A stretch of 64,000 nt of DNA from Pristiophorus japonicus (GCF_044704955.1 NW_027254484.1:62001-126000), one strand, 5' to 3'. Numbered from the stretch's first letter, positions 901 through 34,274 are shown. Notes: generated by a model from the sequence alone, not told the origin. Numbers and translations are program-made.

Positions 901-945
901 CTTGGCCTCAGTGCCCCAGGGCCCTCTTGCAGCATTTATTCAGGT

Positions 946-8112: not shown

Positions 8113-8336
8113 AGATGTAGACAAGTGATATTAACACTTATACTCATTCCGTTATATACTCTCTGCCCCAATTTAAACAGAGAGAGATATTTTACGATAT
8201 TTAGACATTAATATTGATTCATTATCCCCAAGTGCTCCATGTGCGAAGTATGAGATGTATTAAAATACAGACACTAATATTAACCCCGTCGATATGCCCT
8301 CTCTCACTCACTGCCCCAATTACAGCATAGTTAGAG

Positions 8337-9660: not shown

Positions 9661-9943
9661 CTTGGCCTCAGTGCCCCAGGGCCCTCTTGCAGCATTTATT
9701 CAGGTGCATTGATCCCTGGAGCACCCCACTAGTTACTGATTGCCGACCCGAGAATGAACAGTTGTCCCGACTCTCTGTTCTCTGTTAGTGAGCCCATCCT
9801 CCATCCGTGCTAATATATTACCCCCAAACCCCGCGAGCTTTTATCCTGCGCAGTAACCTCTCATGTGGTACTTTATCGAAGGATTGCTCAAACTCCCTTC
9901 GGTCACTGAGCAGGGAAGGAGGTTTGGGTCCACTGGGATTCTC

Positions 9944-10759: not shown

Positions 10760-10842
10760 AGCACACAAACATAACGCTCCCCATCGGGGTCAGAGTGGGG
10801 GCAGAAAACCATCTTTTTATTGGTCACAGCAGGTTTGTACAG
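10760..10842 (-). terminator. Polyadenylation signal of ZNF copy 1
   Basis: Minus strand reads TGTA, then AATAAA (10821-10816), then a GT-rich element GTTATGTTTGTGTG ~40 nt downstream. Confidence 0.65.
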
Positions 10843-12384: not shown

Positions 12385-15300
12385 TCAGCGGGGACAGGGC
12401 AGGGCCCGGTCGGCCGCGTGGCGGGGGAGGTGACAGGCCAGCTCAAAGGCCCGGGCAAAAGCCTCGGGGCAGTGGGGGCAGGGAAAGGCGGGCTGGTGCT
12501 GGGCCGGGCGACGGCAACGGTGGCCGAGCAGCTCCACCAGCCGGCCAAAGTCGCGGCCGCACAGGGCGCAGTCGTAGGGGCGGGGGGCGGCGGGGGCGTC
12601 CGGGCTGGCCGCCCGCGCAGGGAGGGGGGCGTCCGAGGTGCTGGCCTCCGGGGGTTGGCGGATGTCAGCATACGGGGCCTCGTAGCCCTGCGGGAGTTCC
12701 AGGCCTTGGGCCTGCGGGGGTTCGCGGTTCTGCGCATGCGCCTCCTCTAAGCCCTGTGGGAGTTTGAGGCCTTGGGCCTGTGGTAGTTGCCGGCTCTGCG
12801 CATGCGCATTTTCCGAGCAATGTGGTCGTTGCCGGCTCTGCGCATGCGCATTTTCCGAGCAATGTGCTAGTTGCCGGCTCTGCGCATGCGCATTCTCCGA
12901 GCCCTGCGGTAGTTGCTGGCTCTGCGCATGCGCATTTTCCGAGCTATGTGGTAGTTGCCGGCTCTGCGCATGCGCATTCTCCGAGCCCTGCAGCAGCTGC
13001 CGGCTCTGCGCATGCGCATTCTCCGAGCCCTGCGGCAGCTGCCGACTCTGCGCATGCGCATTTTCCGAGCAATGTGGTAGTTGCCGGCTCTGCGCATGCG
13101 CATTTTCCGAGCTATGTGGTAGTTGCCGGCTCTGCGCATGCGCATTCTCCGAGCCCTGCGGCAGCTGCCGCCTCTGCGCATGCGCATCCTCTGAGCCCTG
13201 CGGCAGCTGCCGGCTCTGCGCATGCAGATTCTCCGAGCAATGTGGTAGTTGCTGGCTCTGCGCATGCGCATTTTCCGAGCTATGTGGTAGTTGCCGCCTC
13301 TGCGCATGCGCATCCTCTGAGCCCTGCGGCAGCTGCCGGCTCTGCGCATGCACATTCTCCGAGCAATGTGGTAGTTGCCGGCTCTGCGCATGCGCATCCT
13401 CCGAGCCCTGCGGGAGTTGCCGGCTCTGCGCATGCTGCTCCCCGGCCTCCGGCGTCGGTGGCCCCCCCCGGCAGTGCCTGGCCCGGTGGCCCCTCAGCCC
13501 CCCGGGGGCCTTGAAGGCCCGGCCGCAGCGGGGGCAGGCGTGGGGGCGCAGCGGCGAGTGGGTGCGCCGGTGCCGGCCCAGCAGCGAAGGGCGGGTGAAG
13601 CCCTTGCCGCACTGGCCGCAGACGTAGGGCCGCTCGCCCGTGTGGAGGCGGGCGTGGTGGTCGCGGTCCCGCCCGCTCTTGAAGCGGCGGGGGCAGGAGG
13701 GGCAGGGGTAGGGGGCCCGGTCCGAGTGGGCCCGCAGGTGGCGGGCCAGCTCGTAGGGGTAGCGGAAGCCCTTGTCGCACTGCGGGCAAGCGTGCCGCGG
13801 CGGGTCGGGCAGGTGGCGCCCCCGGTGCTTGAGCAGGTAGGAGGCGGTCTTGAAGCGCTTGGGGCACAGCGGGCACGGGTAGGGGGTCTGGTCGGTGTGG
13901 GTGCGCAGGTGCTGGGCCAGGTAGTGGGGCCGCTTGAAGCGCTTGTCGCAGCGGGGGCAGGGGAAGGGGGCCTCGTCGGTGTGAGTCAACCGGTGGCGGA
14001 GCAGCTCGTAGGAGTTGACGAAGCCCTTGCCGCAGGCCGGGCAGGCGAAGGGCCGCTCGTCGGTGTGGCTGCGCTGGTGGCGGAGGAGGTGGGAGGCCCG
14101 GCTGTACCGGCGGCCGCACTGGGCGCAGCGGAAGGGGGCGGGCAGCGGCGGGTGCAGGGCCACCCCCGTTCCTCCCCGGTGCAACGGCGACGAGGAGGCG
14201 GCGGAGGAGGAGGCGTGCTCCTGGAGCTCGGCCGCCCCCTCGAAGGTCAGCCGGCACAGCGGGCAGGAGAAGGGGCCCTGGCCGGCGTGGCCCGCCAGGT
14301 GGTGGCGGGAGAGGGCCTGGGGGTCGCAGAAGGACTTGCCGCACACGGCGCACTTGGGGCGCTCGGGGAGGGGGGCGGGCCCGTCCGCGTTGGCCGCCGT
14401 TGTCGGGCCGGGGGCCGGGCAGGGCGGGGCGGGCCCGAGCGAGGTCGGCGTCAACGTTGGCGACGAGGCCCATGATGTCAACGTTGTCGTCAACGTTGGC
14501 GACGAGGCCAATGGCGTCAACGTTGGCGACGAGGCCAATGGCGTCAACGTTGGCGACGAGGCCAATGGCGTCAACGTTGGCGACGAGGCCAATGGCGTCA
14601 ACGTTGGCGACGAGGCCAATGGCGTCAACGTTGGCGACGAGGCCAATGGCGTCAACGTTGGCGACGAGGCCAATGACGTCAACGTTGGCGACGAGGGAGC
14701 GATCAATGCGGCGGAGGCCGCCACCGGCGCCCTCTGGTGGGTGCGCCGGTGACGGCGGAGCGTGCCGGGGTCGCGGAAGGCCCGCAGGCACTCGGGGCAC
14801 GGGTACGGCCGCTCGCCGGTGTGCGAGTACTGGTGCCGCAGGAGGTGGGCCGAGCGGCTGTAGCCCTTGCCGCAGGCCCGGCAGCGGAAGGGGCGGCGGG
14901 GCGGGGGCCCGTGCTCGGCCCGGCGGTGGCAGGCCAGGCCCCGGGGCCGGGCGAAGCGGCGGGGGCAGGCGTCGCAGCGGTAGGGGCGGGAGGGGTCGTG
15001 GACCAGGGCGTGGCGGGCCAGCTCGTAGCGCTCCTTGAAGGACTTGCCGCACTGGGGGCAGGCGAAGGCCGAGGGCCGCCCGTGACGGCGCCGGTGCTTC
15101 TGGAGGTACCAGGGCGTGGCGAAGCGCTTGGGGCACAGCGGGCACAGGTACGGGCGCTGGCGCTCGCAGGAGTGGCGGGCCAGCAGCTCGGGCAGGGCAA
15201 AGTCCAGGCCGCAGGAGCGGCAACGCTGCGCGTCGCCGCGCGGATCCGGCGCGCCGGCGGGCGGCGTCGGCGGCGGCGACGGCGGCGGCCGGCAGCGGTG

Positions 15301-15498
15301 GCGGGCCAGCAGCGGGAAGTAGCCGAAGCCCCGCCCGCAGGAGGAGCAGATGAAGGGCGTGCGGGGCGGGTGCAGGGCCCGGTGACGCCAGAGGGGCCAG
15401 GCGCCCGGGAAGCGCTTGCCGCAGTCGCCGCAGCGGTGGGGGCGGCGGGGGGCGGGCGGGCCGGGCCTCCCCCGGCGGAGCGGGGCCCGGCGCGTCAT
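12385..15498 (-). CDS. Multi-C2H2 zinc-finger protein, copy 1 (1037 aa, ~20 fingers, two coding VNTRs)
   Basis: Uninterrupted ORF with repeated CxxC-x12-HxxxH motifs, TGERPY/TDERPF linkers, three C2HC variants and A at Kozak -3; the second copy is also intact. Confidence 0.92.
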   Translation of the reverse strand: MTRRAPLRRGRPGPPAPRRPHRCGDCGKRFPGAWPLWRHRALHPPRTPFICSSCGRGFGYFPLLARHRCRPPPSPPPTPPAGAPDPRGDAQRCRSCGLDFALPELLARHSCERQRPYLCPLCPKRFATPWYLQKHRRRHGRPSAFACPQCGKSFKERYELARHALVHDPSRPYRCDACPRRFARPRGLACHRRAEHGPPPRRPFRCRACGKGYSRSAHLLRHQYSHTGERPYPCPECLRAFRDPGTLRRHRRTHQRAPVAASAALIAPSSPTLTSLASSPTLTPLASSPTLTPLASSPTLTPLASSPTLTPLASSPTLTPLASSPTLTPLASSPTLTTTLTSWASSPTLTPTSLGPAPPCPAPGPTTAANADGPAPLPERPKCAVCGKSFCDPQALSRHHLAGHAGQGPFSCPLCRLTFEGAAELQEHASSSAASSSPLHRGGTGVALHPPLPAPFRCAQCGRRYSRASHLLRHQRSHTDERPFACPACGKGFVNSYELLRHRLTHTDEAPFPCPRCDKRFKRPHYLAQHLRTHTDQTPYPCPLCPKRFKTASYLLKHRGRHLPDPPRHACPQCDKGFRYPYELARHLRAHSDRAPYPCPSCPRRFKSGRDRDHHARLHTGERPYVCGQCGKGFTRPSLLGRHRRTHSPLRPHACPRCGRAFKAPGGLRGHRARHCRGGPPTPEAGEQHAQSRQLPQGSEDAHAQSRQLPHCSENVHAQSRQLPQGSEDAHAQRRQLPHSSENAHAQSQQLPHCSENLHAQSRQLPQGSEDAHAQRRQLPQGSENAHAQSRQLPHSSENAHAQSRQLPHCSENAHAQSRQLPQGSENAHAQSRQLLQGSENAHAQSRQLPHSSENAHAQSQQLPQGSENAHAQSRQLAHCSENAHAQSRQRPHCSENAHAQSRQLPQAQGLKLPQGLEEAHAQNREPPQAQGLELPQGYEAPYADIRQPPEASTSDAPLPARAASPDAPAAPRPYDCALCGRDFGRLVELLGHRCRRPAQHQPAFPCPHCPEAFARAFELACHLPRHAADRALPCPR
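12780..13436 (-). repeat. 42-bp coding VNTR (AHAQSRQLPQGSEN, ~16 units) carrying TGCGCATGCGCA palindromes
   Basis: Tandem 14-aa units in the ORF; 13 perfect TGCGCATGCGCA counted by eye. Confidence 0.95.
14447..14696 (-). repeat. 27-bp coding VNTR (LASSPTLTP, ~9 units)
   Basis: GTCAACGTTGGCGACGAGGCCAATGGC tandem repeats. Confidence 0.95.
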
Positions 15499-16169
15499 CG
15501 TCCCGGGGCGGGGGAGGGTGGGGGCGCTACCCGACCGCGCGCATCGCCAGCCGCCCGCGCCGTCTCCCTCCTCTCCCTCCCGCCTTCCGACGGAGTACCC
15601 ACGTCTACCGCCCTTCTTCTCTCTCCCTCGCGATCGTCACAGCCGGCAAGGGGGGGGTCGCGAGTGGCGAGATAAATAGTCCGAGGCAGAGGGGGGGGTC
15701 GATGGATTGTCCGTCGAGGCTTCTTGCTCCGGAGGGTGGGGGGGCGTCCGTTCCGGGCCCCACGGTTGTCGCTGTTGGTCGCCGCTGGGTCGAGTCGCTT
15801 GTCACGCGCCGGTCTCTTTGCGGGGGGAGGGGGAGCGGGGCGACGATCGCACACCTCTGCCAGCAAACCTCCTTTTCGCACCCCCCCCTCTCACCCCTGC
15901 CCGCAGACCCCCTTGCTCTTTTGTTTCTCCTCCTCTTCTTCTTCCCGAGGGGGGCGTTGGGGGGAGGGGGGCAGGAGCGGGGGAACAGCCCACGGAGAGA
16001 GAGAGAGGTCGGTGTCTCTCGCTGGCCCTGCAAGGGGTGGGGGGGGGGGGGGAGGAGGAAGACGGGCGAGCGTTGAGACAATGCAAATGGCCGACGCGCG
16101 CGCTCCCCACCCCCGCACACACCCCCTCCCCCCACCACACAAGTCTCACAAGGGGAGGGGGAGGGGGGG
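15499..16169 (-). promoter_or_regulatory. CpG-rich 5' region of ZNF copy 1 (5' UTR/promoter or intron end)
   Basis: High GC and CpG; ATGCAAAT at 16081-16088; polypyrimidine tract plus TTGCAG on the minus strand ending at 16028. Confidence 0.5.
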
Positions 16170-16422
16170 GAGTCTGGATTCCGAAACATTCCGAATTTTG
16201 GAACTCTGGATTTTAGACGCTCAAAAATCAATATTGACCCCGGAATATCCCAAGTGCCCCAATTAATATATTTTGAGCTTTATCAATATAGAAGAGTAAT
16301 ATTATGCCCCTGAATAGTTCCCTCGCTGACTCATTCCCCCGTTGGTGTATTTACAGATAGATTGATGGACAGATATTGATCTCATTCCGTTGATATAAAT
16401 CTATCTGTAAATATATTCAGAT

Positions 16423-17313
16423 ATTGTCCGCATGTTCCCCCCCGCCCCCCAGACACCAGACTCCCGAAGCGAGCGCTCGACTCGGAACTCCTGCACGGGC
16501 GCGCGAGCCCCAAGGTGGGCAGAGGAAACGTTCTGCAAGGGACACACCCACTCCCCTCATAAAGTGCAACACCCCCGCCCCCCCCACCGACACCTGGGAG
16601 TCCCCCCTGTGCCCAAAGACCAGTCCGCCCCTAAGTGGTGGAAGTGCATCCGGGAGGGCGCCGAGCACCTCGAGTCTCGTCGCCAATTGCGAGCACGCAG
16701 AAAGCAAGCGCAAGGCAGCGGAAGGAGCGTGCGGCAAACCTGTCCCACCCTCCCCTTTCCCTCAACGTCTGATCTGTCCCACCCTCCCCTTTCCCTCAAC
16801 GTCTATCTGTCCCACCCTCCCCTTCCCTCAACGTCTATCTGTCCCACCCTCCCCTTCCCTCAACGTCTATCTGTCCCACCCTCCCCTTCCCTCAACGTCT
16901 ATCTGTCCCACCCTCCCCTTCCCTCAACATCTATCTGTCCCACCCTCCCCTTTCCCTCAACGTCTATCTGTCCCACCCTCCCCTTCCCTCAACGTCTATC
17001 TGTCCCACCCTCCCCTTTCCCTCAACGTCTCTCTGTCCCACTCTCCCCTTCCCTCAACGTCTATCTGTCCCACCCTCCCCTTCCCTCAACGTCTATCTGT
17101 CCCGCCCTCCCCTTTCCCTCAACGTCTATCTGTCCCACCCTCCCATTCCCTCAACGTCTATCTGTCCCACCCTCCCCTTTCCCTCAACGTCTATCTGTCC
17201 CACCCCGTGACAGGGTCTGCGACTCCCGTATTGGACTATTCAGCCACCTTAGGCCTCGTTTTTAAGAGTGGAAACAAGTCTTCCTCGATTCCAAGGGGCT
17301 GCCTCTAACGATG
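16423..17313 (+). mobile_element. RTE-clade LINE 3' fragment with minisatellite (16740-17206)
   Basis: Copy of 2386-3172. Confidence 0.8.
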
Positions 17314-17537
17314 AGATATAGACAAGTGATATTAACCCTTATACTCATTCCGTTATATACTCTCTGCCCCAATTTAAACAGAGAGAGATATTTTACGATA
17401 TTTAGACATTAATATTGACTCATTATCCCCAAGTGCTCCATGTGCGAAGTATGAGATGTATTAAAATACAGACACTAATATTAACCCCGTCAATATGCCC
17501 TCTCTCACTCACTGCCCCAATTACAGCATAGTTAGAG

Positions 17538-17999
17538 ACATGGAAACATAGAAAATAGGTGCAGGAGCAGGCCATTGGGTCCTTCGAGCCTGCCCCACCA
17601 TTCAATATGATCATGGCTGAACATGCAACTTCAGTACCCCACTCCTGCCTTCTCTCCATACCCCCCTGATCCCTTTAGCCGTAAGGGCCACATCTAACTC
17701 CCTTTTGAATATATCCAACGAACTGGCCCCCAACAACTTTCTGTGGTAGAGAATTCCACAGGTTCACAATTCTCTGGGTGAAGAAGTTTCTCCTCATCTC
17801 GGTCCTAAATGGCTTACCCCTTATCCTTAGACTGTGTGAGCCCTGGTTCTGGACTTCCCCAACATCGGGAACATTCTTCCCGCATCTAACCTGTCCAGTC
17901 CCGTCAGAATTTGACATGTTTCCTATCAGATCCCCCTCTCATCCTTCTAAACTCCAGCGAATATAAGTCCAGTCGATCCAGTCTCTCCTGATATGTCAG
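17538..17999 (-). mobile_element. CR1-A medium form
   Basis: Copy of 3397-3860. Confidence 0.85.
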
Positions 18000-18842
18000 A
18001 AATTAACCCCTCGATGATGTCCTCTCTCACAAGCTGCCCCAATTGAAGCACAGCGAGCTATTTCGGAGATATATGAATGTAGAAAGATTCATATGGATCC
18101 CAGGTTATCCCAAGTGAGATATATTAATATACCGGCAGTAATATTAACCCTTGAAGGACACCCTCCCTCACACCTTGCCTCAATTGAGAGAGAGTTAGCG
18201 ATATTGAAGTATATATTAATATACAAAGATTAATATTGGTTCCTGATGATCCCAAGTGCTATACATGAGCTATATTAATATACAGGCAGTAATATTAACC
18301 CTTGAAGGTCACCCTCCCTCACACCTTGCCTCAATTTAAGCAAATTGAGGAATTTTAAGATATTTCGAGCTCTGTTCAAAGAAAAACATTAATATTGCTG
18401 CCTGGTGATCCCAAGTGCTATATATGAGATATATTAATATACGGGCAGTAATATTAAGCCCTCACTGATGCCCTCCCTCCATCCCTGCCCCAATTGAGGG
18501 AGTTTTGGAGCTATTTAGAGACATATTAATGTATAAACAGTAATATTGACCCCCAGCCACTTGGCCTCAGTGCCCCAGGGCCCTCTTGCAGCATTTATTC
18601 AGGTGCATTGATCCCTGGGGCACCCCACTAGTTACTGATTGCCGACCCGAGAATGAACAGTTGTCCCGACTCTCTGTTCTCTGTTAGTGAGCCCATCCTC
18701 CATCTGTGCTAATATATTACCTCCAAACCCCGCGAGCTTTTATCTTGCGCAGTAACCTCTCATGTGGTACTTTATCGAAGGATTGCTCAAACTCCCTTCG
18801 GTCACTGAGCAGGGAAGGGGGTTTGGGTCCACTGGGATTCTC

Positions 18843-19442
18843 ACATCAGAAATAGGAGCCAGGAGTGGGCCATTCGGCCCCTCGAGCCCTGCTCCGCCAT
18901 TTAATACGATCGTGGGCTGATCCGATCATGGACCCAGCTCCACTTCCCTGCCCGCCCCCTTATCGGTTAAGGAACTGTCTATCTCTGTCTTAAATATATT
19001 CAATGTCCCGGCTTCCACAGCTCTCTGAGGCAGCGAGTTCCACAGATTTACAACCCTCTGAGAGAAGAAATTCCTTCTCATCTCAGTTTTAAATGGGCGG
19101 CCCCTTATTCTAAGACCATGCCCCCTAGTTCTAGTCTCCCCCATCAGTGGGAACATCCACTCTGCATCCACCTTGTCGAGCCCCCCCCTCATAATCTGAT
19201 ACCTTTCGATAAGATCGCCTCTCATTCTTCTGAACTCCAATGAGTAGAGGCCCCAACCTCCTCAACCTTTCCTCATAAGTCAACCCCCTCATCCCCGGAA
19301 TCGACCGAGTGAACCTTCTCTGAACTGCCTCCAAAGCAAAGTGTGTCCTTTGGTAAATACGGAGAGCAAAACTGTGCACGCAGTACTCCAGGTGTGGCCT
19401 CACCAATACCCTGTGTAACTGGAGCAAGACTTCCCTGCTTTT
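18843..19442 (-). mobile_element. CR1-B LINE 3' fragment
   Basis: Copy of 1185-1782. Confidence 0.88.
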
Positions 19443-19562
19443 GTACATACAGGGAATAATACACAAAGATTAAATATTGTTTCCCGATTATCCCAAGTTC
19501 CCCAATCGATACAGTCACAGAGATATTAATCGTTGGCGACGAATATTTAATCCCAGATTACT

Positions 19563-19598
<36 letters not shown>

Positions 19599-20042
19599 CC
19601 CCAATTGCAGCCTATTGAGCTGTTTTAAGATATTTTGAGATCGAGTAAACGTACAGGTGGAGAGGCCGCTCCGGATTCCGGGGGATTTCCGGATTCCGGA
19701 ACGTCGTTGCCTGGGCTGAGGTTGGTGGGGTTGGCCAGCTGAGGTTAGTGGGGGAGGGGAGAGCGGGGGAGCCGAGGAGGGCGAGGGGAGAGTCTGGATT
19801 CCGAAACATTCCGAATTTTGGAACTCTGGATTTTAGACGCTCAAAAATCAATATTGACCCCGGAATATCCCAAGTGCCCCAATTAATATATTTTGAGCTT
19901 TATCAATATAGAAGAGTAATATTATGCCCCTGAATAGTTCCCTCGCTGACTCATTCCCCCGTTGATGTATTTACAGATAGATTGATGGACAGATATTGAT
20001 CTCATTCCGTTGATATAAATCTATCTGTAAATATATTCAGAT

Positions 20043-20803
20043 ATTGTCCGCATGTTCCCCCCCGCCCCCCAGACACCAGACTCCCGAAGCGAGCGCTCGA
20101 CTCGGAACTCCTGCACGGGCGCGCGAGCCCCAAGGTGGGCAGAGGAAACGTTCTGCAAGGGACACACCCACTCCCCTCATAAAGTGCAACACCCCCGCCC
20201 CCTGCACCGACACCTGGGAGTCCCCCCTGGCCCAAAGAGCAGTCCGCCCCTAAGTGGTGGAAGTGCATCCGGGAGGGCGCCTAGCACCTCGAGTCTCGTC
20301 GCCAATTGCGAGCACGCAGAAAGCAAGCGCAGGCAGCGGAAGGAGCGTGCGGCAAACCTGTCCCACCCTCCCCTTCCCTCAACGTCTATCTGTCTCACCC
20401 TCCCCTTTCCCTCAACGTCTATCTGTCCCACCCTCCCCTTCCCTCAACGTCTCTCTGTCCCACCCTCCCCTTTCCCTCAATGTCTATCTGTCCCACCCTC
20501 CCCTTTCCCTCAACATCTATCTGTCCCACCCTCCCCTTTCCCTCAACGTCTATCTGTCCCACCCTCCCCTTTCCCTCAACATCTATCTGTCCCACCCTCC
20601 CCTTCCCTCAACGTCTCTCTGTCCCACCCTCCCCTTTCCCTCAACGTCTATCTGTCCCACCCTCCCCTTTCCCTCAACGTCTATCTGTCCCACCCCGTGA
20701 CAGGGTCTGCAACTCCCGTATTGGACTATTCAGCCACCTTAGGCCTCGTTTTTAAGAGTGGAAACAAGTCTTCCTCGATTCCAAGGGGCTGCCTCTAACG
20801 ATG
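20043..20803 (+). mobile_element. RTE-clade LINE 3' fragment with minisatellite (20358-20696)
   Basis: Copy of 2386-3172. Confidence 0.8.
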
Positions 20804-21027
20804 AGATATAGACAAGTGATATTAACCCTTATACTCATTCCGTTATATACTCTCTGCCCCAATTTAAACAGAGAGAGATATTTTACGATATTTAGACATT
20901 AATATTGACTCATTATCCCCAAGTGCTCCATGTGCGAAGTATGAGATGTATTAAAATACAGACACTAATATTAACCCCGTCAATATACCCTCTCTCACTC
21001 ACTGCCCCAATTACAGCACAGTTAGAG

Positions 21028-22819
21028 ACATAGAAACATAGAAAATAGGTGCAGGAGCAGGCCATTGGGCCCTTCGAGCCTGCCCCACCATTCAGTATGA
21101 TCATGGGCTGATCATGCAACTTCAGTACCCCACTCCTGCCTTCTCTCCATACCCCCCTGATCCCTTTAGCCGTAAGGCCCACATCGAACTCCCTTTTGAA
21201 TATATCCAACGAACTGGCCCCCAACAACTTTCTGTGGTAGAGAATTCCACAGGTTCACAATTCTCTGGGTGAAGAAGTTTCTCCTCATCTCGGTCCTAAA
21301 TGGCTGACCCCTTATCCTTAGACTGTGTGAGCCTTGGTTCTGGACTTCCCCAACATCGGGAACATCCTTTCTGCATCTAACCTGTCCAGTCCCGTCAGAA
21401 TTTTATATGTTTCTATGAGATCCCCTCTCATTCTTCTAAACTCCAGTGAATATAAGCCCAGTCGATCCAGTCTTTCTTCATATGTCAGTCCTGCCATCCC
21501 GGGAATCAGTCTGGTGAACCTTCGCTGCACTCCCTCAATAGCAAGAATGTCCTTCCTCAGATTAGGAGACCAAGACTGAACACAATATTCCAGGTGTGGC
21601 CTCACCAAGGCCCTGTACAACTGCAGTAAGACCTCCCTGCTCCTATACTCAAATCCTCTCGCTATGAAGGCTAACATACCATTTGCCTTCTTCATCCCCT
21701 GCTGTACCTGCATGGCCAACTTTCAATGACTGATGTCCCATGACACCCAGGTCTCGTTGCACCTCCCCTTTTCCTAATCTGTCACCATTCAGATAATATT
21801 CTGCCTTCCTGTTTTTGCCCCCAAAGTGGATAACCTCACATTTATCCACATTATACTGCATCTGCCATGCATTTGCTCACTCACCTAACCTGTCCAAGTC
21901 ACCCTGCAGCCTCTTAGCATCCTCCTCACAGCTCACACCGTACCCAGTTTAGTGTCATCTGTAAACTTGGAGATATTACACTCAATTCCCTCGTCTAAAT
22001 CATGAATGTATATTGTAAATAGCTGGGGTCCCAGCACTGATCCCTGCGGTACCCCACTAGTCACTGCCTGCCATTCTGAAAAGGACCCGTTTATCCCGAC
22101 TCTCTGCTTCCTGTCTGCCAACCAGTTCTCGATCCCCGTCAGTACATTACCCCCAATACCATGTGCTTTAATTTTGCACACCAATCTCTTGTGTGGGACC
22201 TTGTCAAAAGCCTTTTGTCAGTCCAAATACACCACATCCACTGGTTCTCCCTTGTCCACTCTACTAGTTACATCCTCAAAAAATCCCAGAAGATCTTTCA
22301 AGCATGATTTCCCCTTTCATAAATCCATGTTGACTTGGACCGATCCTGTCCCTGCTTTCCAAATGCGCTGCTATTACATCTTTAATAATTGATTCCAACA
22401 TTTTCCCCACGACTGATGTCAGGCTAACCGGTCTATAATTACCCATTTTCTATCTCCCTCCTTTTTTAAAAGTGGGGTTACATTAACTACCCTCCAGTCC
22501 ATAGGGACTGATCCAGAGTCTATCGAATGTTGGAAAATGACCACCAATGCATCCACTTTCTGTGGTAGAGAATTCCACAGGTTCACAATTCTCTGGGTGA
22601 AGAAGTTTCTCCTCATCTCGGTCCTAAGTGGCTTACCCCTTATCCTTAGACTGTGTGAGCCCTGGTTCTGGACTTCCCCAACATCGGGAACATTCTTCCT
22701 GCATCTAAACCTGTCCAGTCCCGTCAGAATTTGACATGTTTCCTGTCAGATCCCCCTCTCATCCTTCTAAACTCCAGCGAATATAAGCCCAGTCGATCCA
22801 GTCTCTCCTGATATGTCAG
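21028..22819 (-). mobile_element. CR1-A long form: frameshifted reverse-transcriptase region plus duplicated 3' segment
   Basis: [37 protein letters not shown] and RPHLEYCVQ spread over several frames. Confidence 0.92.
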
Positions 22820-23813
22820 AAATTAACCCCTCGATGATGTCCTTTCTCACCGGCTGCCCCAATTGAAGCACAGCGAGCTATTTCGGAGATACATGAATGC
22901 AGAAAGATTCAAATGGATCCCAGGTTATCCCAAGTGAGATATATTAATATACCGGCAGTAATATTAACCCTTGAAGGTCACCCTCCCTCACACCTTGCCT
23001 CAATTGAGAGAGAGTTGGCGGTATTGAGGTATATATTAATATACAAAGATTAATATTGGTTCCTGATGATCCCAAGTGCTATACATGAGATATATTAATA
23101 TACCGGCAGTAATATTAACCCTTGAAGGTCACCCTCCCTCACACCTTGCCTCAATTGAGAGAGAGTTGGCGGTATTGAGGTATATATTAATATACAAAGA
23201 TTAATATTGGTTCCTGATGATCCCAAGTGCTATACATGAGATATATTAATATACAGGCAGTAATATTAACCCTTGAAGGTCACCCTCCCTCACACCTTGC
23301 CTCAATTTAAGCAAATTGAGGAATTTTAAGATATTTCGAGCTCTATTCAAAGAAAAACATTAATATTGCTGCCTGGTGATCGCAAGTGCTATATATGAGA
23401 TATATTAATATACGGGCAGTAATATTAAGCCCTCACTGATGCCCTCCCTCCATCCCTGCCCCAATTGAGGGAGTTTTGGAGCTATTTCGAGACATATTAA
23501 TGTACAAACAGTAATATTGACCCCCAGCCACTTGGCCTCAGTGCCCCAGGGCCCTCTTGCAGCATTTATTCAGGTGCATTGATCCCTGGAGCACCCCACT
23601 AGTTACTGATTGCCGACCCGAGAATGAACAGTTGTCCCGACTCTCTGTTCTCTGTTAGTGAGCCCATCCTCCATCCGTGCTAATATATTACCCCCAAACC
23701 CCGCGAGCTTTTATCCTGCGCAGTAACCTCTCATGTGGTACTTTATCGAAGGATTGCTCAAACTCCCTTCGGTCACTGAGCAGGGAAGGAGGTTTGGGTC
23801 CACTGGGATTCTC

Positions 23814-24411
23814 ACATCAGAAATAGGAGCCAGGAGTGGGCCATTCGGCCCCTCGAGCCCTGCTCCGCCATTTAATACCATCGTGGCCTGATCCGATCAT
23901 GGACCCAGCTCCACTTACCTGCCCGCCCCCTTATCGGTTAAGAAACTGTCTATCTCTGTCTTAAATATATTCAATGTCCCGGCTTCCACAGCTCTCTGAG
24001 GCAGCGAGTTCCACAGATTTACAACCCTCAGAGAGAAGAAATTCCTCCTCATCTCAGTTTTAAATGGGCGGCCCCTTATTCTAAGACCATGCCCCCTAGT
24101 TCTAGTCTCCCCCATCAGTGGGAACATCCTCTCTGCATCCACCTTGTCGAGCCCCCCCTCATAATCTGATACCTTTCGATAAGATCACCTCTCATTCTTC
24201 TGAACTCCAATGAGTAGAGGCCCAACCTCCTCAACCTTTCCTCATAAGTCAACCCCCTCATCCCCGGAATCGACCGAGTGAACCTTCTCTGAACTGCCTC
24301 CAAAGCAAAGTGTGTCCTTTGGTAAATACGGAGAGCAAAACTGTGCACGCAGTACTCCAGGTGTGGCCTCACCGATACCCTGTGTAACTGGAGCAAGACT
24401 TCCCTGCTTTT
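23814..24411 (-). mobile_element. CR1-B LINE 3' fragment
   Basis: Copy of 1185-1782. Confidence 0.88.
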
Positions 24412-24531
24412 GTGCATACAGGGAATAATACACAAAGATTAAATATTGTTTCCCGATTATCCCAAGTTCCCCAATCGATACAGTCACAGAGATATTAATC
24501 GTTGGCGACGAATATTTAATCCCAGATTACT

Positions 24532-24567
<36 letters not shown>

Positions 24568-25007
24568 ACTGCCCCAATTGCAGCCTATTGATCTGTTTTA
24601 AGATATTTTGAGATCGAGTAAACGTACAGGTGGAGAGGCCGCTCCGGATTCCGGGGGATTTCCGGATTCCAGAACGTCGTTGCCTGGGCTGAGGTTGGTG
24701 GGGTTGGCCAGTTGAGGTTAGTGGGGGAGGGGGGAGCCGAGGAGGGCGGGGGGAGAGTCTGGATTCCGAAACATTCCGAATTTTGGAACTCTGGATTTTG
24801 GACGCTCAAAAATCAATATTGACCCCGGAATATCCCAAGTGCCCCAATTAATATATTTTGAGCTTTATCAATATAGAAGAGTAATATTATGCCCCTGAAT
24901 AGTTCCCTCGCTGACTCATTCCCCCGTTGGTGTATTTACAGATAGATTGATGGACAGATATTGATCTAATTCCGTTGATATAAATCTATCTGTAAATATA
25001 TTCAGAT

Positions 25008-25738
25008 ATTGTCCGCATGTTCCCCTCCCCCCGCCCCCCAGACACCAGACTCCCGAAGCGAGCGCTCGACTCGAAACTCCTGCACGGGCGCGCGAGCCCC
25101 AAGGTGGGCAGAGGAAACGTTCTGCAAGGGACACACCCACTCCCCTGATAAAGTGCAATACCCCCGCCCCCCACACCGACACCTGGGAGTCCCCCCTGGC
25201 CCAAAGACCAGTCCGCCCCTAAGTGGTGGAAGTGCATCCGGGAGGGCGCCGAGCACCTCGAGTCTCGTCGCCAATTGCGAGCACGCAGAAAGCAAGCGCA
25301 GGCAGCGGAAGGAGCGTGCGGCAAACCTGTCCCACCCTCCCCTTTCCCTCAACGTCTATCTGTCTCACCCTCCCCTTTCCCTCAACGTCTATCTGTCCCA
25401 CCCTCCCCTTTCCCTCAACGTCTTTCTGTCCCACCCTCCCCTTTCCCTCAACGTCTCTCTGTCCCACCCTCCCATTCCCTCAACGTCTATCTGTCCCACC
25501 CTCCCCTTCCCTCAACGTCTATCTGTCCCACCCTCCCCTTTCCCTCAACGTCTATCTGTCCCACCCTCCCCTTCCCTCAATGTCTATCTGTCCCACCCTC
25601 CCCTTCCCTCAACGTCTATCTGTCCCACCCCGTGACAGGGACTGCGACTCCCGTATTGGACTATTCAGCCACCTTAGGCCTCGTTTTTAAGAGTGGAAAC
25701 AAGTCTTCCTCGATTCCAAGGGGCTGCCTCTAACGATG
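25008..25738 (+). mobile_element. RTE-clade LINE 3' fragment with minisatellite (25327-25631)
   Basis: Copy of 2386-3172. Confidence 0.8.
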
Positions 25739-25962
25739 AGATGTAGACAAGTGATATTAACCCTTATACTCATTCCGTTATATACTCTCTGCCCCAATTT
25801 AAACAGAGAGAGATATTTTACGATATTTAGACATTAATATTGACTCATTATCCCCAAGTGCTCCGTGTGCAAAGTATGAGATGTATTAAAATACAGACAC
25901 TAATATTAACCCCGTCAATATGCCCTCTCTCACTCACTGCCCCAATTACAGCATAGTTAGAG

Positions 25963-27756
25963 ACAGAGAAACATAGAAAATAGGTGCAGGAGCAGGCCAT
26001 TGGGCCCTTCGAGCCTGACCCACCATTCAATATGATCATGGCTGATCATGCAACTTCAGTACCCCACTCCTGCCTTCTCTCCATACCCCCCTGATCCCTT
26101 TAGCCGTAAGGGCCACATCTAACTCCCTTTTGAATATATCCAACGAACTGGCCCCCAACAACTTTCTGTGGCAGAGAATTCCACAGGTTCGCAATTCTCT
26201 GGGTGAAGAAGTTTCTCCTCATCTCGGTCCTAAATGGCTGACCCCTTATCCTTAGACTGTGTGAGCCCCTGGTTCTGGACTTCCCCAACATCGGGAACAT
26301 TCTTCCCGCATCTAAACCTGTCCAGTCCCGTCAGAATTTTATATGTTTCTATGAGATCCCCTCTCATTCTTCTAAACTCCAGTGAATATAAGCCCAGTCG
26401 ATCCAGTCTTTCTTCATATGTCAGTCCTGCCATCCCGGGAATCAGTCTGGTGAACCTTCGCTGCACTCCCTCAATAGCAAGAATGTCCTTCCTCAGATTA
26501 GGAGACCAAAACTGAACACAATACTCCAGGTGTGGCCTCACCAAGGCCCTGTACAACTGCAGTAAGACCTCCCTGCTCCTATACTCAAATCCTCTCGCTA
26601 TGAAGGCCAACATACCATTTGCCTTCTTCACCCCCTGCTGTACCTGCATGGCCAACTTTCAATGACCGATGTCCCATGACACCCAGGTCTCGTTGCACCT
26701 CCCCTTTTCCTAATCTGTCACCATTCAGATAATATTCTGCCTTCCTGTTTTTACCACCAAAGTGGATCACCTCACATTTATCCACATTATACTGCATCTG
26801 CCACGCAGTTGCCCCACTCACCTAACCTGTCCAAGTCACCCTGCAGCCTCTTAGCATCCTCCTCACAGTTCACACTGCCACCCAGCTTAGTGTCATCTGC
26901 AAACTTGGAGATATTACACTCAATTCCTTCGTCTAAATCATTAATGTATATTGTAAATAGCTGGGGTCCCAGCACTGATCCCTGCGGCACCCCACTAGTC
27001 ACTGCCTGCCGTTCTGAAAAGGACCCGTTTATCCCGACTCTCTGCTTCCTGTCTGCCAACCAGTTCTCGATCCCCGTCAGTACATTACCCCCAATACCAT
27101 GTGCTTTAATGTTGCACACCAATCTCTTGTGTGGGACCTTGTCAAAAGCCTTTTGTCAGTCCAAATACACCACATCCACTGGTTCTCCCTTGTCCACTCT
27201 ACGAGTTACATCCTCAAAAAATCCCAGAAGATCTTTCAAGCATGATTTCCCTTTCATAAATCCATGTTGACTTGGACCGATCCTGTCCCTGCTTTCCAAA
27301 TGCACTGCTATTACATCTTTAATAATTGATTCCAACATTTTCCCCACTACTGATGTCAGGCTAACCGGTCTATAATTACCCATTTTCTATCTCCCTCCTT
27401 TTTTAAAAGTGGGGTTACATTAACTACCTTCCAGTCCATAGGGACTGATCCAGAGTCTATCGAATGTTGGAAAATGACCACCAATGCATCCACTTTCTGT
27501 GGTAGAGAATTCCACAGGTTCACAATTCTCTGGGTGAAGAAGTTTCTCCTCATCTCGGTCCTAAGTGGCTTACCCCTTATCCTTAGACTGTGTGAGCCCT
27601 GGTTCTGGACTTCCCCAACATCGGGAACATTCTTCCTGCATCTAAACCTGTCCAGTCCCGTCAGAATTTGACATGTTTCCTATCAGATCCCCCTCTCATC
27701 CTTCTAAACTCCAGCGAATATAAGCCCAGTCGATCCAGTCTCTCCTGATATGTCAG
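25963..27756 (-). mobile_element. CR1-A long form (RT pseudogene)
   Basis: [31 protein letters not shown] and KFADDTKL motifs, frameshifted. Confidence 0.92.
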
Positions 27757-28750
27757 AAATTAACCCCTCGATGATGTCCTTTCTCACCGGCTGCCCCAAT
27801 TGAAGCACAGCGAGCTATTTCGGAGATACATGAATGCAGAAAGATTCAAATGGATCCCAGGTTATCCCAAGTGAGATATATTAATATACCGGCAGTAATA
27901 TTAACCCTTGAAGGTCACCCTCCCTCACACCTTGCCTCAATTGAGAGAGAGTTGGCGGTATTGAGGTATATATTAATATGCAAAGATTAATATTGGTTCC
28001 TGATGATCCCAAGTGCTATACATGAGATATATTAATATACCGGCAGTAATATTAACCCTTGAAGGTCACCCTCCCTCACACCTTGCCTCAATTGAGAGAG
28101 AGTTGGCGGTATTGAGGTATATATTAATATACAAAGATTAATATTGGTTCCTGATGATCCCAAGTGCTATACATGAGATATATTAATATACAGGCAGTAA
28201 TATTAACCCTTGAAGGTCACCCTCCCTCACACCTTGCCTCAATTTAAGCAAATTGAGGAATTTTAAGATATTTCGAGCTCGATGCAAAGAAAAACATTAA
28301 TATTGCTGCCTGGTGATCGCAAGTGCTATATATGAGATATATTAATATACGGGCAGTAATATTAAGCCCTCACTGATGCCCTCCCTCCATCCCTGCCCCA
28401 ATTGAGGGAGTTTTGGAGCTATTTCGAGGCATATTAATGTATAAACAGTAATATTGACCCCCACCCACTTGGCCTCAGTGCCCCAGGGCCCTCTTGCAGC
28501 ATTTATTCAGGTGCATTGATCCCTGGGGCACCCCACTAGTTACTGATTGCCGACCCGAGAATGAACAGTTGTCCCGACTCTCTGTTCTCTGTTAGTGAGC
28601 CCATCCTCCATCCGTGCTAATATATTACCCCCAAACCCCGCGAGCTTTTATCCTGCGCAGTTACCTCTCATGTGGTACTTTATCGAAGGATTGCTCAAAC
28701 TCCCTTCGGTCACTGAGCAGGGAAGGAGGTTTGGGTCCACTGGGATTCTC

Positions 28751-29349
28751 ACATCAGAAATAGGAGCCAGGAGTGGGCCATTCGGCCCCTCGAGCCCTGC
28801 TCCGCCATTTAATACCATCGTGGCCTGATCCGATCATGGACCCAGCTCCACTTCCCTGCCCGCCCCCTTATCGGTTAAGGAACTGTCTATCTCGGTCTTA
28901 AATATATTCAATGTCCCGGCTTCCACAGCTCTCTGAGGCAGCGAATTCCACAGATTTACAACCCTCTGAGAGAAGAAATTCCTCCTCATCTCAGTTTTAA
29001 ATGGGCGGCCCCTTATTCTAAGACCATGCCCCCTAGTTCTAGTCTCCCCCATCAGTGGAAACATCCTCTCTGCATCCACCTTGTCGAGCCCCCCCCTCAT
29101 AATCTGATACGTTTCGATAAGATCACCTCTCATTCTTCTGAACTCCAATGAGTAGAGGCCCAACCTCCTCAACCTTTCCTCATAAGTCAACCCCCTCATC
29201 CCCGGAATCGACCGAGTGAACCTTCTCTGAACTGCCTCCAAAGCAAAGTGTGTCCTTTGGTAAATACGGAGAGCAAAACTGTGCACGCAGTACTCCAGGT
29301 GTGGCCTCACCAATACCCTGTGTAACTGGAGCAAGACTTCCCTGCTTTT
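28751..29349 (-). mobile_element. CR1-B LINE 3' fragment
   Basis: 179-aa open CR1 ORF2 C-terminal frame at 28834-29373. Confidence 0.9.
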
Positions 29350-29953
29350 GTACATACAGGGAATAATACACAAAGATTAAATATTGTTTCCCGATTATCC
29401 CAAGTTCCCCAATCGATACAGTCACAGAGATATTAATCGTTGGCGACGAATATTTAATCCCAGATTACTCCCCCCTCTCTCTCTCTCTCTCTCTCTCTCA
29501 CTCACTGCCCCAATTGCAGCCTATTGAGCTGTTTTAAGATATTTTCAGATCGAGTAAACATACAGGTGGAGAGGCCGCTCCGGATTCCGGGGGATTTCCG
29601 GATTCCGGAATGTCGTTGCCTGGGCTGAGGTTGGTGGGGTTGGCCAGCTGAGGTTAGTGGGGGAGGGGGGAGAGCGGGGGAGCCGAGGAGGGCGGGGGGA
29701 GAGTCTGGATTCCGAAACATTCCGAATTTTGGAACTCTGGATTTTAGACGCTCAAAAATCAATATTGACCCCGGAATATCCCAAGTGCCCCAATTAATAT
29801 ATTTTGAGCTTTATCAATATAGAAGAGTAATATTCTGCCCCTGAATAGTTCCCTCGCTGACTCATTCCCCCATTGGTGTATTTACAGATAGATTGATGGA
29901 CAGATATTGATCTCATTCCGTTGATATAAATCTATCTGTAAATATATTCAGAT

Positions 29954-30584
29954 ATTGTCCGCATGTTCCCCCCCCGCCCCCCAGACACCAGACTCCCGAA
30001 GCGAGCGCTCGACTCGGAACTCCTGCACGGGCGCGCGAGCCCCAAGGTGGGCAGAGGAAACGTTCTGCAAGGGTCACACCCACTCCCCTGATAAAGTGCA
30101 ACACCGCCCCCCCACCCACCGACACCTGGGAGTCCCCCCTGGCCCAAAGACCAGTCCGCCCCGAAGTGGAGGAAGTGCATCCGGGAGGGCGCCGAGCACC
30201 TCGAGTCTCGTCGCCAATTGCGAGCACGCAGAAAGCAAGCGCAAGGCAGCGGAAGGAGCGTGCGGCAAACCTGTCCCACCCTCCCCTTTCCCTCAACATC
30301 TATCTGTCCCACCCTCCCATTCCCTCAACGTCTATCTGTCCCACCCTCCCCTTCCCTCAACGTCTATCTGTCCCACACTCCCCTTTCCCTCAACGTCTAT
30401 CTGTCCCACCCTCCCCTTTTCCTCAATGTCTATCTGTCCCACCCTCCCCTTCCCTCAACGTCTATCTGTCCCACCCCATGACAGGGACTGCGACTCCCGT
30501 ATTGGACTATTCAGCCACCTTAGGCCTCGTTTTTAAGAGTGGAAACAAGTCTTCCTCGATTCCAAGGGGCTGCCTCTAACGATG
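29954..30584 (+). mobile_element. RTE-clade LINE 3' fragment with minisatellite (30271-30477)
   Basis: Copy of 2386-3172. Confidence 0.8.
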
Positions 30585-30808
30585 AGATATAGACAAGTGA
30601 TATTAACCCTTATACTCATTCCGTTATATACTCTCTGCCCCAATTTAAACAGAGAGAGATATTTTACGATATTTAGACATTAATATTGACTCATTATCCC
30701 CAAGTGCTCCATGTGCGAAGTATGAGATGTATTAAAATACAGAGACTAATATTAACCCCGTCAATATGCCCTCTCTCACTCACTGCCCCAATTACACCAT
30801 AGTTAGAG

Positions 30809-30892
30809 ACATAGAAACATAGAAAATAGGTGCAGGAGCAGGCCATTGGGCCAATATAAGCCCAGTCGATCCAGTCTCTCCTGATATGTCAG
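30809..30892 (-). mobile_element. CR1-A short form
   Basis: Same deletion junction as 7085-7168. Confidence 0.75.
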
Positions 30893-31736
30893 AAATTAAC
30901 CCCTCGATGATGTCCTCTCTCACCGGCTGCCCCAATTGAAGCACAGCGAGCTATTTCGGAGATATATGAATGTAGAAAGATTCATATGGATCCCAGGTTA
31001 TCCCAAGTGAGATATATTAATATACCGGCAGTAATATTAACCCTTGAAGGTCACCCTCCCTCACACCTTGCCTCAATTGAGAGAGAGTTGGCGGTATTGA
31101 GGTATATATTAATATACAAAGATTAATATTGGTTCCTGATGATCCCAAGTGCTATACATGAGATATATTAATATACCGGCAGTAATATTAACCCTTGAAG
31201 GTCACCCTCCCTCACACCTTACCTCAATTTAAGCAAATTGAGGAATTTTAAGATATTTCGAGCTCTATTCAAAGAAAAACATTAATATTGCTGCCTGGTG
31301 ATCCCAAGTGCTATATATGAGATATATTAATATACGGGCAGTAATATTAAGCCCTCACTGATGCCCTCCCTCCATCCCTGCCCCAATTGAGGGAGTTTTG
31401 GAGCTATTTCGAGACATATTAATGTATAAACAGTAATATAGACCCCCAGCCACTTGGCCTCAGTGCCCCAGGGCCCTCTTGCAGCATTTATTCAGGTGCA
31501 TTGATCCCTGGGGCACCCCACTAGTTACTGATTGCCGACCCGAGAATGAACAGTTGTCCCGACTCTCTGTTCTCTGTTAGTGAGCCCATCCTCCATCCGT
31601 GCTAATATATTACCCCCCAAACCCCGCGAGCTTTTATCCTGCACAGTAACCTCTCATGTGGTACTTTATCGAAGGATTGCTCAAACTCCCTTCGGTCACT
31701 GAGCAGGGAAGGGGGTTTGGGTCCACTGGGATTCTC

Positions 31737-32333
31737 ACATCAGAAATAGGAGCCAGGAGTGGGCCATTCGGCCCCTCGAGCCCTGCTCCGCCATTTAATA
31801 CCATCGTGGTCTGATCCGATCATGGACCCAGCTCCACTTCCCTGCCCGCCCCCCTTATCGGTTAAGAAACTGTCTATCTCTGTCTTAAATATATTCAATG
31901 TCCCGGCTTCCACAGCTCTCTGAGGCAGCGAGTTCCACAGATTTACAACCCTCTGAGAGAAGAAATTCCTCCTCATCTCAGTTTTAAATGGGCGGCCCCT
32001 TATTCTAAGACCATGCCCCCTAGTTCCAGTCTCCCCCATCAGTGGGAACATCCTCTCTGCATCCACCTTGTCGAGCCCCCTCATAATCTGATACGTTTCG
32101 ATAAGATCACCTCTCATTCTTCTGAACTCCAATGAGTAGAGGCCCAACCTCCTCAACCTTTCCTCATAAGTCAACCCCCTCATCCCCGGAATCGACCGAG
32201 TGAACCTTCTCTGAACTGCCTCCAAAGCAAAGTGTGTCCTTTGGTAAATACGGAGAGCAAAACTGTGCACGCAGTACTCCAGGTGTGGCCTCACCAATAC
32301 CCTGTGTAACTGGAGCAAGACTTCCCTGCTTTT
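31737..32333 (-). mobile_element. CR1-B LINE 3' fragment
   Basis: Copy of 1185-1782. Confidence 0.88.
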
Positions 32334-32453
32334 GTACATACAGGGAATAATACACAAAGATTAAATATTGTTTCCCGATTATCCCAAGTTCCCCAATCGA
32401 TACAGTCACAGAGATATTAATCGTTGGCGACGAATATTTAATCCCAGATTACT

Positions 32454-32489
<36 letters not shown>

Positions 32490-32941
32490 ACTGCCCCAAT
32501 TGCAGCCTATTGATCTGTTTTAAGATATTTTGAGATCGAGTAAACGTACAGGTGGAGAGGCCGCTCCGGATTCCGGGGGATTTCCGGATTCCGGAACGTC
32601 GTTGCCTGGGCTGAGGTTGGTGGGGTTGGCCAGCTGAGGTTAGTGGGGGAGGGGGAGAGCGGGGGGAGCCGAGGAGGGCGGGGGGGGAGAGTCTGGATTC
32701 CGAAACATTCCGAATTTTGGAACTCTGGATTTTAGACGCTCAAAAATCAATATTGACCCCGGAATATCCCAAGTGCCCCAATTAATATATTTTGAGCTTT
32801 ATCAATATAGAAGAGTAATATTATGCCCCTGAATAGTTCCCTCGCTGACTCATTCCCCCGTTGGTGTATTTACAGATAGATTGATGGACAGATATTGATC
32901 TCATTCCGTTGATATAAATCTATCTGTAAATATATTCAGAT

Positions 32942-34050
32942 ATTGTCCGCATGTTCCCCCCCCGCCCCCCAGACACCAGACTCCCGAAGCGAGCGCTCGA
33001 CTCGGAACTCCTGCGCGGGCGCGCGAGCCCCAAGGTGGGCAGAGGAAACGTTCTGCAAGGGACACACTCACTCCCCTGATAAAGTGCAACACCCCCGCCC
33101 CGACACCTGGGAGTACCCCCTGGCCCAAAGACCAGTCCGCCCCTAAGTGGTGGAAGTGCATCCGGGAGGGCGCCGAGCACCTCGAGTCTCGTCGCCAATT
33201 GCGAGCACGCAGAAAGCAAGCGCAGGCAGCGGAAGGAGCGTGCGGCAAACCTGTCCCACCCTCCCCTTTCCCTCAACGTCTATCTGTCCCACCCTCCCAT
33301 TCCCTCAACGTCTATCTGTCCCACCCTCCCCTTTCCCTCAACATCTATCTGTCCCACCCTCCCCTTCCCTCAACGGCTATCTGTCCCACCCTCCCCTTCC
33401 CTCAACGTCTATCTTTCCCACCCTCCCCTTCCCTCAACGTCTATCTGTCCCAACCTCCCCTTCCCTCAACGTCTATCTGTCCCAGCCTCCCCTTCCCTCA
33501 ACGTCTATCTGTCCCACCGTCCCCTTTCCCTCAACGTCTATCTGTCCCACCCTCCCCTTCCCTCAACGTCTATCTGTCCCACCCTCGCTTTCCCTCAACG
33601 TCTATCTGTCCCACCCTCCCCTTCCCTCAACGTCTATCTGTCCCACCCTCCCCTTCCCTCAACGTCTATCTGTCCCACCCTCCCTTTCCCTCAACGTCTA
33701 TCTGTCCCACCCTCCCCTTTCCCTCAACGTCTCTCTGTCCCACCCTCCCCTTTCCCTCAACGTCTATCTGTCCCACCCTCCCTTTCCCTCAACCTCTATC
33801 TGTCCCACCCTCCCCTTTCCCTCAACGTCTCTCTGTCCCACCCTCCCCTTTCCCTCAACGTCTATCTGTCCCACCCTCCCCTTTCCCTCAACGTCTCTCT
33901 GTCCCACCGTCCCCTTTCCCTCAACGTCTATCTGTCCCACCCCGTGACAGGGACTGCGACTCCCGTATTGGACTATTCAGCCACCTTAGGCCTCGTTTTT
34001 AAAAGTGGAAACAAGTCTTCCTCGATTCCAAGGGGCTGCCTCTAACGATG
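32942..34050 (+). mobile_element. RTE-clade LINE 3' fragment with the longest minisatellite (~21 units, 33251-33943)
   Basis: Copy of 2386-3172. Confidence 0.8.
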
Positions 34051-34274
34051 AGATATAGACAAGTGATATTAACCCTTATACTCATTCCGTTATATACTCT
34101 CTGCCCCAATTTAAACAGAGAGAGATATTTTACGATATTTAGACATTAATATTGACTCATTATCCCCAAGTGCTCCATGTGCGAAGTATGAGATGTATTA
34201 AAATACAGACACTAATATTAACCCCGTCAATATGCCCTCTCTCACTCACTGCCCCAATTACAGCATAGTTAGAG

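Follow-up and report, generated by a model that had tools for sequence, protein, structure and literature searches.

A duplicated zinc-finger gene with a coding minisatellite that carries tandem NRF1 consensus sites

Can a repeat that encodes protein also be maintained for a transcription factor, or does a binding site that recurs from unit to unit simply travel with the repeat? The question is raised by a 42-bp coding minisatellite present in both copies of a zinc-finger gene in the window (the whole stretch of DNA analysed, 64,000 nucleotides). Its unit reads (N/D)AHAQ, in frame with minus-strand open reading frames at 12385-15636 (which includes sequence upstream of the first Met) and 46374-49388, and contains the 12-bp palindrome TGCGCATGCGCA. 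A preliminary description took the array for dual-use DNA acting as a methylation-sensitive intragenic element. Transcription-factor constraint on coding DNA is hard to test, since single exonic sites give little power; here a clean test is possible because 25 optimal in-frame sites could be recoded synonymously and because natural length variants and a weak allele exist. The same array could show whether a strong cryptic promoter is silenced by methylation of the gene body around it. Should no factor bind to it, it would be an ordinary lineage-specific coding minisatellite.

Perfect NRF1 consensus sites do lie in the coding repeat of this duplicated zinc-finger gene. Recounting reproduced both the peptide and the 13 and 12 perfect palindromes previously reported for the two copies, the latter at 46786-47343; no exact TGCGCATGCGCA was found outside the two arrays in the 64-kb window. 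One hundred dinucleotide shuffles of the window gave an expectation of 0.00, a null that exaggerates the surprise because a tandem array is one origin copied. The 10-bp core GCGCATGCGC has 26 exact matches in the window, 25 within palindromes and one, at about 12731-12732, inside an older 66-bp unit. A tandem-repeat scan placed the arrays at 12779-13435 (15.6 copies) and 46766-47382 (14.7 copies), both with a period of 42 and 86-88% matches. As in coding minisatellites generally, the units lie head to tail, fall within 10-100 bp, keep the frame in a coding exon and vary in number, here between the two gene copies of the window; unit order differs between the copies as well. A Markov model fitted to the gene island predicts that one 42-bp unit would contain YGCGCAYGCGCR in about 3 of 10,000 cases and any of ten promoter-motif families in about 2% (consensus strings, their choice guided by PMC3820735). 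A promoter-type motif is rare for a single repeat, yet it is to be expected somewhere across a very large scan. The feature combines two known kinds, the coding VNTR and the tandem NRF1 array, and the functions considered below are predictions from its sequence. Among the titles and abstract openings listed in literature searches, we found no description of a coding NRF1 VNTR.

Table 1. Coordinates of the features of the window.
Feature	Position	Strand	Details
42-bp coding minisatellite, copy 1	12725..13436	-	~15.6 units; unit peptide SENAHAQSRQLP[Q/H][G/C/S]
NRF1 palindromes of copy 1 array	12797-13396		13 perfect; 2 broken (13217, 13343)
42-bp coding minisatellite, copy 2	46766..47383	-	~14.7 units; 12 perfect palindromes
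Degenerate 66-bp (22-aa) precursor units	12643..12816	-	C-terminal end of array
27-bp coding VNTR (LASSPTLTP), copy 1	14449..14696	-	
27-bp coding VNTR, copy 2	48396..48562	-	shorter
Intron-less ORF, gene copy 1	12385..15498	-	1,037 aa from Met at 15498
Second gene copy	46374..49364	-	open frame 46374-49388
Likely poly(A) signal	10816..10821	-	pattern only; just before macrosatellite junction
Putative promoter: CpG-rich 5' flank	15499..16154	-	
Head-to-tail macrosatellite, 3-5 kb composite units	16155..44700	+	also 1-10700, 50019-64000
Longest LINE 3' fragment	21000-22560	-	reverse-transcriptase motifs; in 5 units
151-bp AT-rich tandem repeat	8914-9648, 22935-23519, 27872-28456, 57869-58216		variable copy number; tandem-repeat scan

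The DNA-contacting residues of NRF1 (R206, N242 and R244) are generally conserved across vertebrates. Of the 14 bases of DNA in the human NRF1 crystal, the site described here matches 13, so binding of the factor to copies free of methylation is to be expected. That the motif is the NRF1 consensus is borne out by the 26 exact 10-mers, which match the site given as optimal or preferred in PMC10810270. The methylation sensitivity that had been ascribed to NRF1 also has support: in cells NRF1 is methylation-sensitive, and its sites become accessible on removal of methylation (PMC9729108). Other properties proposed for the array find weak support at best. The 42-bp period does equal 4.0 turns at 10.5 bp, but this phasing is not discriminating because about 15% of in-frame periods share it (4 of the 27 between 21 and 99 bp fall within 1 bp of whole turns). 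The suggestion of Z-DNA meets alternating purine-pyrimidine runs of only 13 bp each, 28 in the two arrays and one per 42 bp. Transcription from the array into the flanks is likewise unsupported, because the poly(A) signal, 1.9 kb downstream of the array, precedes one flank, and the other, whose junction lies 2.7 kb upstream, is beyond the 5' end of the gene.

The product of the host ORF is a poly-C2H2 zinc-finger protein (PF00096, E 1e-74) in which a pattern scan finds 18 finger-like C2H2/C2HC motifs, two of them downstream of the VNTR. The gene copies are 33,989 bp apart, and outside the VNTRs they differ by 13 substitutions in 2,210 aligned coding bases, seven synonymous and six nonsynonymous. 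The resulting dN/dS of 0.31 (p 0.033) points to a working gene under purifying selection. GC3 outside the repeats is 96%. We considered whether the array might be an intron and rejected this because no GT donor precedes it on the sense strand, which lacks GT between 13612 and 13353. The likely poly(A) signal is the sole AATAAA/ATTAAA hexamer in the readable 3' region, part of which is unreadable in both copies, and it recurs at the same position in copy 2. No NRF1 consensus within two mismatches was found in the 5' flank. The octamer ATGCAAAT occurs only twice in the window, at 16081 and 49945; each gene copy thus has one, some 580 bp ahead of its start codon. A TATTTAT lies near 15672-15678 on the minus strand. 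Three short C-x2-C-x12-H-x-C fingers at residues 97-157 and 1023-1041 (numbering of ORF product P0001) follow a pattern uncommon among the compared proteins that could help to locate an ortholog.

Word-index, HMMER and Atlas searches for that ortholog gave only generic zinc-finger proteins, with 25-51% identity among the matches listed; its absence from the searched collections does not show absence in nature. The nearest Atlas clusters are chordate FIZ1, ZNF319, ZNF770 and REPIN1 (score 0.95-0.96). The ORF protein has an identical Atlas entry, which may stem from this very genome, and an exact look-up found neither gene copy's protein in the collection searched. For the repeat peptide, the databases searched yielded no protein family match and no convincing relative; its single match (P0003) was discarded as an unrelated low-complexity repeat with 28% identity. 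Vertebrate poly-C2H2 proteins without KRAB, SCAN or BTB domains resemble this protein in their clustered C2H2 fingers and Pro/Ala-rich linkers, and differ in that the coding repeat has no convincing relative. A single-sequence structure model, computed without an alignment, predicts hardly any secondary structure for the repeat, with pLDDT for the most part below 50, as would suit a disordered linker ahead of the final two fingers. Sequencing runs were searched with the segment 13440-14445, a comparison that is silent on expression. Seven of the 24 listed runs (one organism, two studies, no RNA run among them) contain 86-97% of its words, and four of the 24 assembled onto it gave only short pieces of other zinc-finger genes, none spanning.

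How the array arose can be followed in part from its edge. The 42-bp unit is a 66-bp unit minus 24 bp. The last 66-bp unit lacks the site and differs from the 42-bp consensus as often within the palindrome (5 of 12 bases) as elsewhere (12 of 30; p = 1), and the penultimate one retains the 10-bp core, with no differences in 10 bases against 11 in the 32 outside (p 0.04; 1 of 12 against 10 of 30 for the 12-mer, p 0.13). The 29 full units, partial edge units being left out, comprise 22 types, four of them common to both copies. They differ from one another by about 12% on average versus 0.6% in the flanking coding sequence, and linkage among six sites distinguishes two basic types, with mosaics of the two. 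As a single strand the array folds strongly (z -8.2, 20 shuffles). The sequence itself shows these steps: a 66-bp linker unit was duplicated, one of the units holds GCGCATGCGC, the 42-bp unit arose by loss of 24 bp, and its two variant types became interleaved and were shuffled anew in each gene copy. Such a pattern would be expected if units exchanged through their identical core, and amplification probably proceeded in this way, by slippage, unequal crossover or conversion; unit-to-unit pairing of palindromes together with fold-back of the single strand could have favoured it. The 25 sites would then be one origin multiplied. On balance, we take the array to be a coding minisatellite specific to its lineage and situated in the linker that precedes the final two fingers; the gene would be functional, GC-rich and composed of a single coding exon.

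Does the palindrome vary less than the rest of the unit? The 29 full units hold 23 minor alleles, 21 outside the palindrome and two inside, against about 6.6 expected there (binomial p 0.022) despite its two CpGs; 14 of the 23 crowd unit positions 30-42 (p 0.003). Most unit variation thus falls outside the palindrome, as had been described. By variable sites the comparison is 2 of 12 in the palindrome against 15 of 30 elsewhere (Fisher p 0.08), and simulation gives the allele deficit a p of 0.009-0.012 without a CpG boost and about 0.001 with a 5-fold boost. With the hypervariable positions 30-42 set aside, the deficit has p 0.21. Synonymous alleles number zero at the four synonymous positions of the palindrome and nine outside (p 0.061); the simulated chance of such a zero is 0.009-0.13 without a CpG boost, and simulations of this test span 0.001-0.24 by model. 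If the six alleles that only tell the two unit types apart are left out, an analyst's choice, the deficit moves to p 0.097 and the synonymous test to p 0.21 (deficit in simulation, 0.07-0.08 without and 0.014-0.016 with the boost). The per-position comparison upholds a somewhat under-variable palindrome and does not establish synonymous constraint (p 0.06-0.21). An intact motif was what drew attention to the array, which biases all of these p-values in favour of constraint. The counts lean towards a possible constraint of some form on the core.

Individual changes bear on the kind of constraint. A C>T at a palindrome CpG occurs in four of the 29 units, in one of them with a second change; the identical single change weakens human NRF1 about six-fold, from a Kd of 0.31 to 1.81 uM (PMC10810270, Table 2). 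In copy 2 a His-to-Arg change preserves GCGCAYGCGC (n = 1). None of the 23 alleles creates a stop codon, 14 alter an amino acid, and synonymous alleles make up 9 of the 23 where 10 of the 42 sites are synonymous (ratio about 0.49, p 0.07). The invariant 12-bp stretch spans unit positions 12-23, the palindrome positions 9-20. Codon choice does not single out the NRF1 site, because the repeat uses CAT and rare codons beyond the palindrome. His is CAC in 48 of 48 codons of the gene outside the repeats and CAT in 13 of 13 in the repeat outside the palindrome, and CAA, CTA, CCA and GAA, common in the 42-bp unit, are nearly absent from the rest of the gene. We accordingly rejected an argument from rare codons (core codons at about 2e-4 under the gene's usage), as the whole unit uses them. 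An antisense Cys-rich frame, LCACAFSEPCGSCR (12768-13514, plus strand), has 11 of the 23 alleles synonymous versus nine in the sense frame; we regard it as a by-product because its third positions coincide with those of the sense frame, and its sole Pfam match lies below cut-off.

The gene contains a second coding VNTR, which was not part of the initial selection of the 42-bp array. Seven units of copy 1 of this 27-bp repeat match the CCAAT-box consensus RRCCAATSR, and TGACGTCA occurs once per copy, at 14674 and 48540. A random 27-bp unit would contain a promoter-motif family in 1.2-1.5% of cases under gene-island composition (0.3% without GC-boxes) and in 3.4% under whole-window composition. 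The units, which are near-perfect, carry an AACGTT palindrome. TTGGCGACGA is found in nearly every 27-bp coding unit and at two opposite-facing macrosatellite sites (8 and 12 copies), at 19533 (+) and 20296 (-) with their equivalents, about 760 bp apart. This shared 10-12-mer, present in 20 array copies, was noticed post hoc; none of 1,500 shuffles reached both matches. TTGGCGACGA may resemble a tRNA-Ser primer-binding-site motif of vertebrate LTR elements. In PMC3820735, NRF1 and NF-Y are among the nine most enriched human promoter motifs, and three copies of TGCGCATGCGCAG served as a reporter element.

Whether the locus is methylated can be approached through its CpGs. CpG observed/expected is 0.8-1.0 in the coding region, 0.97 in the array and 0.54 in the flanks. 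CpG transitions account for 5 of the 13 coding differences between the gene copies (p 0.003-0.017) versus none of six in the 5' flank, a count that takes in CpG gains as well as losses. This excess hints at gene-body methylation, and some methylation of the gene body in the germline is likely. In the VNTR, CpG transitions hit 5 of 10 CpG bases, and 9 of the 32 remaining bases are variable in the same count (p 0.26). Of four macrosatellite segments, three are enriched 3.0-6.5-fold in CpG transitions; the CpG-rich segment (16155-16733 and equivalents) shows 1.5-fold (p 0.51) and may be an unmethylated island.

Selection on the NRF1 site is not needed to explain the sequence. We favour, by a little, a model in which a latent NRF1 cluster was amplified as a passenger and is masked by gene-body methylation. 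This model draws on the stepwise passage from 66 to 42 bp, with a palindrome no better conserved than its surroundings in the last unit; on the rapid divergence of units relative to the coding sequence, the few types shared between copies and the two-type mosaics; on the synonymous tests and the loss of the deficit once positions 30-42 are removed; on the site-weakening CpG transition and on rare codons that are not site-specific; and on the methylation hinted at by coding CpG transitions, the single-strand fold and the precedent of masking at mouse Mgl2 (PMC7305168). Given the established biochemistry of NRF1, the array would be a latent high-affinity cluster, that is, a cryptic intragenic promoter or a sink, which methylation would mask in most cells and which would be exposed only where the locus is hypomethylated. 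Counting against such a passenger are the two palindrome alleles where about 6.6 were expected, neither of them synonymous, the core kept in the penultimate 66-bp unit and the CCAAT boxes of the other VNTR; the CpG content of the gene and the lack of clear enrichment of CpG transitions in the VNTR also tell against masking by methylation. A different account, which strikes us as less likely, is selected dual-use DNA. On this view the coding exon would contain multimerised promoter elements, the 42-bp array for NRF1 and perhaps the 27-bp array for CCAAT/NF-Y. They would maintain an open CpG island at the gene or give rise to transcription that is internal, antisense or germline, the effect being tuned by repeat number and gene copy number. 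The shortage of core alleles (p 0.01-0.1 across tests), and the zero against nine synonymous alleles, lie in the direction it predicts; the core was retained across the older 66/42 split, the His-to-Arg change of copy 2 left the site intact, and both the trimer reporter (PMC3820735) and the TERRA 29-bp repeats offer precedents. The CCAAT boxes, rare by chance under either composition, raise this reading. Yet direct tests give the synonymous signal no significance, its p-values suffer from the choice of an array with an intact motif, a site-breaking variant has spread to 4 of 29 units, the same core could be obtained by protein constraint or by conversion, and no ortholog was found in the searched collections.

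A stronger version, in which both coding VNTRs (the 42-bp array with 14 NRF1 cores and the 27-bp array with 7 CCAAT boxes) are selected multimerised core-promoter elements and the exon is a methylation-gated promoter or chromatin opener inside the macrosatellite, its strength set by repeat number, seems to us slightly less likely again. If it were true, the CpG-rich 10-12-mer of the 27-bp unit would tie the gene and the macrosatellite to one factor. Constraint could also lie in the peptide: the HAQS core of a His/Gln/Ser-rich, partly Cys-containing low-complexity spacer, which would position or tune the last two fingers, would be kept and the NRF1 match would be a by-product. The invariant positions 12-23 track the H-A-Q-S codons better than they track the palindrome, stop codons are absent, synonymous alleles tend to be over-represented (p 0.07) and the gene is under purifying selection. 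Such constraint leaves the fixed third positions unexplained, however, and it has to accommodate 14 of 23 alleles that change an amino acid and a repeat with no family match whose predicted structure, in a model that is weak without an alignment, is nearly devoid of secondary structure; we judge it improbable. The claim of a methylation-sensitive intragenic element stands in part: it has precedents (PMC6600276 and PMC7305168), and the selection on the site that it implied is not established (synonymous p 0.06 and 0.21).

Among the closest parallels to the array is the human TERRA promoter, whose 29-bp repeats hold an NRF1 site each and drive transcription of TERRA (PMC6600276, PMC5087959). Both are CpG-rich tandem units each with an NRF1 site. 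NRF1 binding to the TERRA repeats is demonstrated, and both this binding and the activity of the promoter require demethylation. The TERRA repeats are subtelomeric and encode no protein, and their sites are two bases off consensus, whereas the sites here are perfect, coding and predicted. No telomeric array appears in the window's tandem-repeat list, which together with the coding nature of the repeat sets it apart from the TERRA type. At mouse Mgl2, three intronic NRF1 motifs create a cryptic start once methylation is lost (PMC7305168). The likeness lies in several NRF1 motifs within a gene body, with methylation masking reported there and presumed here; the Mgl2 motifs number three and lie in an intron rather than a coding VNTR, and their activity was seen in methylation mutants. 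Exonic binding sites, described as duons or exonic enhancers (bioRxiv 10.1101/2021.09.06.459186), likewise overlap codons and are reported to code preferentially for loops, which is probably also what the linker here forms. Duons are scattered sites, unlike the 13-fold tandem multimer described here, for which dual use is putative.

The surroundings of the gene had been described as a flanking array of transposable elements. They are instead a macrosatellite whose units, all on one strand, share modules in 10-15 copies and contain 32-bp and 151-bp minisatellites, a CT run, the CpG-rich segment and 3' LINE fragments. The latter are not intact elements: they are broken by stops and frame changes, with an RVT_1 match (E 1.5e-13) at 21936-22217. 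The longest is presumably CR1-type. The look of these CR1-type repeats suggests that the animal is a cartilaginous fish, probably a shark. The 151-bp repeat has no Rfam match, and no Rfam families or tRNAs were found in the window. DUX4 in D4Z4 is a known case of a gene embedded in a macrosatellite, and the likeness extends to a long tandem array enclosing a GC-rich island, in which the coding region of a transcription factor is intron-less. Unlike DUX4, this gene, known from sequence alone, occurs once per ~34 kb among gene-less units of 3-5 kb. Both gene copies meet the macrosatellite at identical points and the module order after each differs, an arrangement that would fit paralogs within a higher-order repeat of variable make-up; alternatively, two haplotypes may have been joined one after the other. 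Along the plus strand of the macrosatellite there is a steady, strong skew of C over G, which reverses over both gene islands.
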